Made by a program: the position numbers. From assembly GCF_056746865.1 (NCBI RefSeq), contig NZ_CM163382.1: a stretch of DNA of 64,000 nucleotides. One strand, given 5' to 3'. The first letter of the stretch is position 1. Every line of letters begins with the position of its first letter. Below, one piece after another: positions 46,301 through 49,300 of this stretch.

Positions 46301-49300
46301 AGCTCGGTGCGCTCGCGCGTTGAAAAAAGCGAAGCCAACGCGCAAGCCACCAATGCGGTTATTCCACCCGCCAGAATGCCTGATAACTGATTTAGCGCTC
46401 AGTTTCGGTGATCCACAGCTGGCCACCTTCCATCCACGCCAGCCACTGACCATCCGGCGAGAAGACCACGGCGTCCGCAGAAGGTGGATTGGCGTGGTTT
46501 TCGGTTAAATACTCAACCTCGCCACTTTGCGCATGGGCACAAGCAATTCGATTATCCAGCACAAAGCCCAACCATTCTCCTGACGGATGCCAGTTAAATG
46601 CAGACTGAATATCCGTTTTGTTATGGGTTAACTGGCGCGGCTCGCCGCCCTGTGGCGAGATAAGCCACAGTTGCACAATGCCGTTATCATCACGCATTAA
46701 AAACGCGATTTGCGTACCCTGCGGATTACAGCGCACCCAGTGGCGCGGGACGTTGACTAACCCCGGATAAGCCCGATGGTGGGTAAAGGTTAAACGTCGC
46801 TGCACAACGCCACGCGGTGGCGCGGGCAGGGTTGTTTCCGTTCCGCTTAACGGCGCATCACCTGCTACTTTCCAGCCAGCTTCATCTTGCGGTAACTCAA
46901 CGATAAACAGCTCCGGCACTTTCTCGCCCTTTGGCGAAAGTGTATCGCCAATAAACGCCAGCGCGTGATTTCCTACCCATCCTTCTTCATAAGCACGATT
47001 GATTTCATTACTGCCAGGCTGCGGCGTGGGCGTGGTTTTACTTACCAGCACGCACCAGTGGCTGCCGCTGTATTCACGCGGATGCTGCTTTTGTATGTTG
47101 ACCGGGCCAAACGGTGCAGCAATACCGACGTTTCGCAAATCCAGCGCCGGATCGAGTTCATGCATTACATGGTCGTTATAGGTAAAGCTCACCCTTTCAC
47201 CGTTCGGGCTAAAGACATGTACATGACTGCCGCCGCGCAGCGCTCCTGGAGTGTACGGTGCGGTAATATCCATTGCATCGAGATTGCTCACCTTGCCGCT
47301 TTCAGCAATCACGCCGCGACGATGATGGAAATCGTAATGCCATGTTTCATCAGGATTTTCAGGTCCGTGGATGAAGACATATTTTTCTGACTTCGGATGA
47401 ACGGTCACCACGCCGACGCGTGCGCCCTGTGACGCGCGATAGATAACCTCGACCTCGCCGGTATGGATATTCACACGCTCAATGGTCTCGCCGGTAAACG
47501 ACGCGCCAGAAGGACGCACGTCAAATACCAGCCACTGGCTGTCGGGCGTCCAGATATTGGTATTGGTGAGCAGGTGATTACGGGGAGCAAAGGTTATCTG
47601 TTTCATGGCGCGGTCCTGATACAAAACGGGTCCCGCCATCATACTTCACAAGGACTTCACTTTCAGACAATAGTCTTTCGCCATCGTGATGAATGTGAGT
47701 GAAAAGATGGAACATTTCGACGTGGCGATTATTGGCCTCGGCCCGGCAGGGTCGGCATTGGCGCGAAAGTTAGCCGGCAAAATGCAGGTGATCGCGCTGG
47801 ATAAAAAGCACCAGCATGGTACTGAAGGTTTCAGCAAACCTTGTGGCGGTCTGCTGGCACCGGACGCGCAGCGATCTTTTATTCGCGATGGACTGACGCT
47901 TCCTGTCGATGTGATCGCCAACCCGCAGATTTTCAGCGTCAAAACCGTCGACGTCGCCGCATTGCTCACGCGTAACTACCAGCGAAGCTATATCAATATT
48001 AATCGCCATGCTTTCGACTTGTGGATGAAATCTCTGATCCCCGCCAGCGTTGAGGTTTATCACGACAGCCTGTGTCGAAAAATCTGGCGTGAGGATGATA
48101 AATGGCATGTCATTTTTCGTGCAGACGGTTGGGAGCAGCATATTTCTGCCCGCTATCTGGTCGGTGCCGATGGTGCCAACTCGATGGTGCGGCGACATCT
48201 CTACCCGAACCATCAAATTCGTAAATATGTCGCTATCCAGCAGTGGTTCGCAGAGAAGCATCCGGTGCCGTTCTACTCCTGCATCTTTGATAATGCGATA
48301 ACTGACTGTTACTCATGGAGTATCAGCAAAGACGGTTATTTTATCTTTGGCGGTGCCTATCCCATGAAAGACGGTCAGACGCGTTTCACAGCACTGAAAG
48401 AGAAAATGAGCGCCTTTCAGTTCCAGTTTGGCGAAGCGGTGAAAAGTGAGAAATGTACCGTGTTGTTTCCCTCACGCTGGCAGGATTTTGTCTGCGGTAA
48501 GGACAATGCCTTTCTGATTGGTGAAGCGGCGGGATTTATCAGCGCCAGCTCGCTGGAGGGGATTAGCTATGCGCTGGATAGCGCAGAGATTCTGCGTTCG
48601 GTGTTACTGAAGCAGCCGGAGAAGAGTAACGCCGCCTACTGGCGCGCCACCCGCAAACTGCGTTTAAAACTCTTCGGTAAGATAGTAAAAAGCCGATGCC
48701 TGACCGCACCGGCTTTAAGAAAGTGGATTATGCGCAGTGGTGTGGCGCATATTCCACAGTTGAAAGATTATCCAACGCGTTTCACATCGCCCACCAGCAG
48801 GATGTAAGAGAGCGCGCCAATCAACGCGACGGCGGAGATATAAACCAGTGCCGGGGCGAAACCGTAACCCTGCGCCAGGTACCCCACCACCAGCGGAACG
48901 GTGATGCCGCCCAGACCACCGGCAAAGTTAAACACGCCGCCGGTTAAACCAATCAGGCGCATCGGTGCCAGAGAAGAGACCAGCGACCAGGTAATCGAAG
49001 CAAAACCGTTGCCGAAGAATGCCAGCGCCATCAGGCACATAATCATCATCGGGTCATTGGTGTAGTTAGCGCCCATAATGCAGGTGGAGATCAGCAAGCC
49101 GCAGATAATCGGCGTTTTACGCGCAAAGCCCAGTGAAAAGCCCTTACGTACCAGCAGATCCGCGACCCAGCCAGAGAGCAGGACGCCGACAAACGCCGCG
49201 AGGAATGGCACAGTGGTCATAAAGCCTGCTTTCAGCGCCGTGATTCCTTTTTCCTGGGTTAAATAGTTCGGGAACCAGGTTAAGAAAAACCACAGTGTAG

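Follow-up and report, generated by a model that had tools for sequence, protein, structure and literature searches.

The convergent genes cbrA and dgoT meet tail to tail in a stretch of 64,000 nucleotides from contig NZ_CM163382.1 (assembly GCF_056746865.1), hereafter called the window, and their coding sequences share 40 bp. Does this overlap reflect an error, a means by which the two genes interfere with each other, or an ordinary variant of the junction? The initial annotation had offered two readings, a real tail-to-tail overlap with possible antisense interference or a strain-specific C-terminal extension of CbrA relative to Escherichia coli K-12. Our comparison of strains and species suggests that the overlap is very probably a natural and common stop-codon allele of cbrA in a gapless cbrA/dgoT junction, and not an unusual device. 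This conclusion is based on its single-base cause, its recurrence in independent genomes and a two-state pattern across genera. The features of the junction are the following.

47707..48807, plus strand: cbrA coding sequence, long allele, 366 aa and TAA (ORF list; PGAP in strain 118UI; NF008519; Pfam FAD-binding families)
48769..48771, plus strand: switch codon TAT (Tyr), which is a TAG stop in K-12 (pairwise alignment with K-12; junction table of strains and species)
48769..48804, plus strand: predicted C-terminal extension of CbrA, 12 codons complementary to the final 12 sense codons of dgoT
48805..48807, plus strand: long-allele cbrA stop TAA, complement of dgoT Ser-Tyr codons (TCT TAC)
48768..48807, both strands: convergent overlap of the coding sequences, 40 bp (sequence reading; ORF list; RefSeq annotation)
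48768..50060, minus strand: dgoT, D-galactonate:H+ symporter, with the 430-aa K-12-type start (Pfam MFS_1; NCBIfam TIGR00893)
46392..47606, minus strand: yidR, the immediate same-strand neighbor downstream of dgoT where cbrA is absent from the site

The overlap proposed at 48768-48807 is real. In the ORF list, the two frames span 47686..48807 (plus) and 48768..50105 (minus) and have 40 bp in common. On the plus strand the cbrA frame closes with AGG ATG TAA, while the tta at 48768-48770 reads on the minus strand as TAA, the stop codon of dgoT. The start of cbrA is likely the ATG at 47707 (366 aa, MEHFDV...) and not the upstream GTG at 47686. PGAP calls the gene at this ATG in E. coli 118UI, a finished genome which is 100% identical to the window at the junction, and its calls there correspond to 47707-48807 for cbrA (366 aa) and 48768-50105 for dgoT. 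The latter start gives a DgoT of 445 aa, and the equivalent of the curated K-12 start lies at 50060 (430 aa).

Both overlapping reading frames are genuine genes conserved across genera. DgoT matches the NCBIfam model of D-galactonate transporters, TIGR00893, with 494.5 bits and also Pfam MFS_1. CbrA scores 682.7 bits against the NCBIfam equivalog NF008519 (cut-off 303), with residues 1-354 aligned to positions 1-354 of the 355 in the model. Its Pfam matches are FAD-binding families, and against the geranylgeranyl reductase family TIGR02032 it reaches 115.7, below the cut-off of 158.8. CbrA, a FAD protein with geranylgeranyl reductases as relatives, has been described to saturate the alpha-isoprene unit of C55-P and thereby to block cleavage by colicin M, and E. 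coli overproducing CbrA is resistant (Barreteau 2020 in PMC8469651). The summary of this activity in PMC8469651 names neither strain nor allele.

Alignment of the CbrA C-terminus with its K-12 counterpart traces the overlap to a single base. K-12 reads GAT TAG CC where the window reads GAT TAT CC, and the T at 48771 converts the cbrA stop into a tyrosine codon, the first of 12 further codons ahead of the TAA. The overlap measures 40 bp because CbrA is thereby 12 aa longer than in K-12. In MG1655, cbrA (354 aa) ends at 3870441 and the 3′-end of dgoT lies at 3870438, which leaves a 4-bp tail-to-tail overlap with the sequence TTAG. The K-12 junction (b3690/b3691) is otherwise alike, with the same convergent genes, no intergenic DNA and the same downstream hairpins, and residues 1-354 of its CbrA are 96% identical to those of the window. 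It differs in its TAG switch codon, its 354-aa product and its 4-bp overlap, in contrast to TAT, 366 aa and 40 bp in the window. Thus, the two readings of the initial annotation hold together, since the overlap is real and is an extension relative to K-12. However, the extension is not strain-specific, and K-12 itself has overlapping genes.

The same base 48771 is the wobble position of the terminal glycine codon of DgoT, GGC in K-12 and GGA in the window, and the change is silent there. According to the coordinates, the third codon positions of cbrA (48771, 48774, and so on) coincide with those of dgoT across the whole overlap. Therefore, GGC or GGT in dgoT corresponds to a TAG or TAA stop in cbrA, GGA or GGG corresponds to TAT or TAC (Tyr), and the tail peptide is set by the conserved C-terminus of DgoT. 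A change invisible to DgoT toggles CbrA between 354 and 366 aa. When the stop is shared (TTAA or TTAG), the stop codons of both genes interlock, which gives the 4-bp overlap and the 354-aa CbrA. With T at 48771, ribosomes on cbrA would read 12 codons antisense to dgoT, which gives 366 aa and 40 bp, and 366 aa is the predicted product of the long allele. The sequence of the tail would then be held by selection on DgoT and not on CbrA.

As in other stop-loss polymorphisms, one substitution (TAG to TAT at 48769-48771) turns a stop into a sense codon, and translation is predicted to proceed to the next in-frame stop (TAA at 48805-48807). Unlike in the usual case, the substitution falls silently on a wobble position of a convergent gene and the extension is the antisense of the DgoT C-terminus. 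That the next in-frame stop comes after 12 codons is unremarkable, the random expectation being about 20 codons by hand arithmetic only. This arrangement carries little biological weight and is a tidy case of a silent base in one gene setting the stop codon of its convergent neighbor.

Both forms of the junction were found among the RefSeq genomes of E. coli that were inspected individually.

40-bp form: 118UI, ATCC 25922, an ST1193 isolate (cbrA frameshifted there), 30602_6#35, AVS0543
4-bp form: YL03, RIVM_C037794, strain 144, WCHEC025943, K-12

The 366-aa proteins of the long form carry the RefSeq accessions WP_001377132.1 (118UI), WP_001529490.1 (ATCC 25922) and WP_001532050.1 (ST131-type), and PGAP annotates the same 40-bp architecture for them. 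The protein of 118UI is identical to that of the window and the others are a few substitutions apart. The overlap is ordinary and effectively already annotated in RefSeq. The ST1193 genome has the cbrA end at the same position, yet its cbrA is annotated as a frameshifted pseudogene.

The frequency of the long allele was estimated with a 99-nt query that had the junction at its centre, and the order of cbrA and dgoT in the match table served as a proxy for the allele, which was right in all seven matches checked. Two evenly spaced samples of 60 matches each contained 16 and 14 long alleles by this proxy. Exact matches to the 99-mer were obtained in 149 genomes for the haplotype of the window and in 533 genomes for that of ATCC 25922. 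All eight sampled matches with one mismatch to the latter were also long by proxy, including O25b:H4-ST131 genomes. Taken from the proxy and the exact 99-mer counts and not from a full census, as the search gave identity bands only, the estimate is about 1,200-1,400 of 5,426 complete E. coli genomes (~23-27%, or about a quarter). In protein searches, the exact 366-aa sequence was found on at least 1000 contigs, as was the K-12 protein, and several further 366-aa variants of CbrA exist. The notion of a strain-specific extension is therefore not tenable, given this share and the annotation of the long allele in many independent genomes. Annotators and comparative pipelines should not treat a CbrA of 366 aa, or the 40-bp overlap, as erroneous. 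Within E. coli, each of the two main cbrA 3′ haplotype backgrounds is found with T as well as with G at 48771, and this sequence pattern indicates recombination or recurrent mutation.

The same alternation was observed beyond E. coli. A degenerate pattern for the DgoT C-terminus identified 69 loci among the GTDB species representatives, and where cbrA adjoins dgoT in these, only two states occur, 4 bp or 40 bp.

4-bp shared stop (TTAA or TTAG): Citrobacter youngae, C. amalonaticus, C. sedlakii, Phytobacter massiliensis, Enterobacter sp. ENT03, Escherichia sp. E1V33
40-bp overlap: E. albertii (TAT), E. whittamii (TAC), Pseudocitrobacter vendiensis (TAT), with an identical 12-aa tail in all

Within the first group, E1V33 has TAG, and the Citrobacter, Phytobacter and ENT03 group has TTAA. 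The terminal glycine codon of DgoT could be read at 68 loci and is GGC in 42, GGT in 20, GGA in 2 and GGG in 4, so that GGY is the usual terminal codon, with cbrA present or absent. From the long forms in E. albertii, E. whittamii and Pseudocitrobacter, the long allele could be old in the Escherichia group, and the K-12 form should not be presumed ancestral. In E. albertii and E1V33, only a remnant of dgoT (~105 nt) is left, and both are therefore weaker outgroups for polarity.

The species comparison also suggests how the gapless junction arose. Of the representatives, 38 lack cbrA at the site, and in these yidR starts 50-97 nt (mostly 51) past the dgoT stop on the same strand, and a hairpin TACCCTGATGCG...CGCATCAGGGTA lies between dgoT and yidR in cbrA-less genomes. 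In the nine cbrA-bearing representatives with enough flanking sequence, the distance from dgoT to yidR is 1161-1235 nt, with cbrA in between on the opposite strand. We infer that cbrA is an opposite-strand insertion of about 1.1 kb in this spacer, with its 3′ boundary at the dgoT stop codon. A spacer of ~51 nt in most Enterobacterales would thus have taken up cbrA in such a way that the cbrA 3′-end adjoins the dgoT stop with zero intergenic DNA. With the boundary at this place, the cbrA frame closes at the first stop at or past the junction. A gene inserted in a tiny spacer would thereby end up borrowing the stop codon of its neighbor.

The lack of intergenic DNA directs attention to the transcript ends. 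Folding of the minus strand at 48650-48775 revealed two hairpins within the cbrA coding sequence (z = -4.88; none of 200 shuffles was as good).

48723..48757, minus strand: first hairpin in the predicted dgoT 3′ UTR, GUGGAAUAUGCGC...GCGCAUAAUCCAC, inside the cbrA coding sequence (fold)
48679..48716, minus strand: predicted intrinsic terminator of dgo, stem AAAGCCGGUGC/GCAUCGGCUUU at 48716-48689, followed by UUACUAUCUU (fold)

The distal hairpin has an 11-bp stem and a 6-nt loop (GGUCAG) with a dG of -17.9 kcal/mol, and three more U are located in the stem ahead of UUACUAUCUU. It thus shows the sequence features of an intrinsic terminator, a GC-rich stem-loop with a U-rich tract immediately after it. 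A consensus scan missed this hairpin because part of its U-run is paired. The scan returned a weak 7-pair hairpin at 48789-48773 (minus strand), which was rejected since it precedes the stop of dgoT and is still part of that coding sequence. The predicted terminator occupies the cbrA codons K328-L337, which specify conserved CbrA residues. Its stem is 94% paired across nine Escherichia and related sequences, compared with 28-51% in slid controls. All stem changes are one-sided (G-U to G-C or A-U) and double-sided compensations amount to zero. As the region also encodes conserved CbrA residues, the conservation of the stem could stem from the protein sequence. All Escherichia sequences have the distal hairpin, and Pseudocitrobacter and ENT03 have it in a modified form. 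In Citrobacter, Phytobacter and ENT03, an extra ~42 nt straight after the dgoT stop forms a 12-bp GC hairpin and encodes a longer CbrA tail.

From this fold, the dgo mRNA would end at the predicted hairpin and U-tract, about 50-90 nt inside cbrA. On the plus strand, no terminator was detected after either cbrA stop by the consensus scan or by folding (48740-48840, z = -1.0; 48800-48920, z = -0.06), and no Rfam family was found in 48400-49100. The dgo operon is repressed by DgoR, and it is therefore uninformative that a mapped 3′-end of dgoT or cbrA does not appear in the searchable Term-seq supplements of PMC7815308. With the predicted terminator within cbrA and zero intergenic DNA, the transcripts would overlap under both alleles, and the long allele would add translated overlap and no extra transcript overlap. 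The terminator embedded in cbrA, the wobble-base switch and the insertion origin of the gapless junction are modest by-products of the analysis.

The conservation of CbrA bears on whether the 12-aa tail matters. Cross-genus conservation of the protein stops at IMRSG[VI]AHIP, and the last 7-20 residues vary in length and sequence. The tail begins past the last conserved residues and falls outside the NF008519 model, and for these two reasons it is probably a tolerated appendage, neutral or nearly so. A structure model of the 366-aa protein from a 13-sequence alignment (mean pLDDT 47.6, pTM 0.45) was too poor to place the tail. A sequence search of the PDB gave only a remote flavin monooxygenase match at residues 5-164, which is uninformative on the C-terminus.

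Explanations other than a common stop-codon allele have to be weighed against these observations. An error of sequencing or assembly, with the true cbrA stop at the K-12 position and an artefactual 40-bp overlap, could be suspected since the window departs from K-12 by one base at the switch codon. Such an error, or a frameshift, is excluded by recurrence across independent assemblies and species, and we give it virtually no chance: the junction of the window is matched at 100% identity in a finished genome, the two long-allele haplotypes match 149 and 533 genomes exactly, three other species have TAT or TAC at the same codon, and the exact 366-aa protein recurs on at least 1000 contigs. A tail that is functional and selected, for instance through membrane association, stability or activity in a way that alters colicin M resistance, is highly doubtful. 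The identity of the tail in E. coli, E. albertii, E. whittamii and Pseudocitrobacter and the high frequency of the long allele speak for such a role. However, with third positions coinciding, the conservation of DgoT forces this identity, and beyond residue ~350 CbrA is conserved across genera neither in length nor in sequence. The tail has no place in the equivalog model. Both alleles occur on both main 3′ haplotype backgrounds, and one genome with the long allele, that of ST1193, has cbrA annotated as a frameshifted pseudogene.

The remaining explanations assign the overlap a role in expression. The convergent transcripts of cbrA and dgoT do overlap in RNA-seq data of MG1655, where the pair is one of 165 with convergent, overlapping transcripts in half or more of the 58 samples (ExcludonFinder, NAR 2025, PMC12288877), and its place in this convergent-overlap list likens it to excludon pairs. 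The listing in PMC12288877 refers to coverage overlap only and concerns the 4-bp allele. The corresponding overlap in the window would follow from the lack of intergenic DNA and the position of the predicted terminator. An allele-specific antisense or translational interference caused by the 40-bp overlap is very unlikely, because the observed overlap belongs to K-12, a strain with the 4-bp allele, and both alleles place the predicted dgo terminator about 50-90 nt into cbrA. With no plus-strand terminator past either cbrA stop in addition, the transcript overlap should be equal, and the alleles would differ only in the translation of 36 more nt of cbrA. The possible interference proposed in the initial annotation hence loses its tie to the 40-bp allele. 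A broader idea, to which we assign a small chance, is that the use of D-galactonate is coupled to colicin M resistance: induced dgo transcription would enter the 3′-end of cbrA in antisense for ~90-125 nt and lower CbrA in an excludon-like manner, and the long allele would expose 36 nt more of translated cbrA mRNA. Any such effect of dgo transcription on cbrA, and hence on colicin M resistance, would concern both alleles alike.

In strains RIVM_C037794 and 144, the second stop position is TAT, and loss of the first stop would there yield a 76-bp overlap.

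In most Enterobacterales representatives (loci L012-L078 from the compared genomes; window 46392-50105), yidR lies downstream of dgoT in the same orientation, separated from it by approximately 51 nt and a conserved hairpin, TACCCTGATGCG...CGCATCAGGGTA. In these genomes yidR is placed as if it were the sixth gene of the dgo cluster. This gene order is broken by cbrA in Escherichia, some Citrobacter, Phytobacter massiliensis, Enterobacter sp. ENT03 and Pseudocitrobacter. The annotated start of dgoT varies by source (window 50060-50105, minus strand): for most genomes PGAP gives a protein of 445 aa from the ATG at 50105, while the start in the curated K-12 record is 15 codons further in (430 aa, MDIPVN...).

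CbrA of the Citrobacter/Phytobacter/ENT03 group has a longer C-terminal tail, e.g. ...DDQPATTSGGLVKDS. The DNA coding for this tail forms a 12-bp GC-rich hairpin, CCAGCCCGCC...GGCGGGCTGG, immediately 3′ of dgoT. The segment concerned, which is absent from Escherichia, is located as follows:

Loci L035, L040, L047, L019, L017 and L020, approximately 42 nt immediately past the dgoT stop: tail-coding segment of cbrA

Among E. coli lineages, the 3′ third of cbrA (window 48300-48700) shows unusually high divergence. Compared with K-12, ATCC 25922 or ST131-type strains, the window differs there at 14-16 positions per 200 nt, and in the neighbouring part of dgoT at 1-6 per 200 nt. Its haplotype blocks form a mosaic, which suggests recombination inside the gene. 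The cbrA of E. coli ST1193 MDBZ1340 (L007 488-1586) carries the annotation of a frameshifted pseudogene, and its 3′ end is that of the long allele (TAT in the window where K-12 has the stop TAG); the annotation of E. coli WCHEC025943 (L010 1547-2884) lists dgoT as a pseudogene interrupted by an internal stop.

O157:H7 and O55:H7 genomes lack the entire dgoRKADT operon, as do a few others, e.g. O169:H41 F6326-C1 and strain 147. In these genomes, cbrA is adjoined by a 114-nt remnant of dgoT, followed by yidX:

L080 3547-3660: 3′ remnant of dgoT in O157:H7 strain 611

The breakpoint is equivalent to approximately window position 48873. Since homology in E. albertii NBRC 107761 and Escherichia sp. 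E1V33 ends near the same point as in O157:H7, the data suggest an old presence/absence polymorphism of the dgo operon with a breakpoint common to these lineages.
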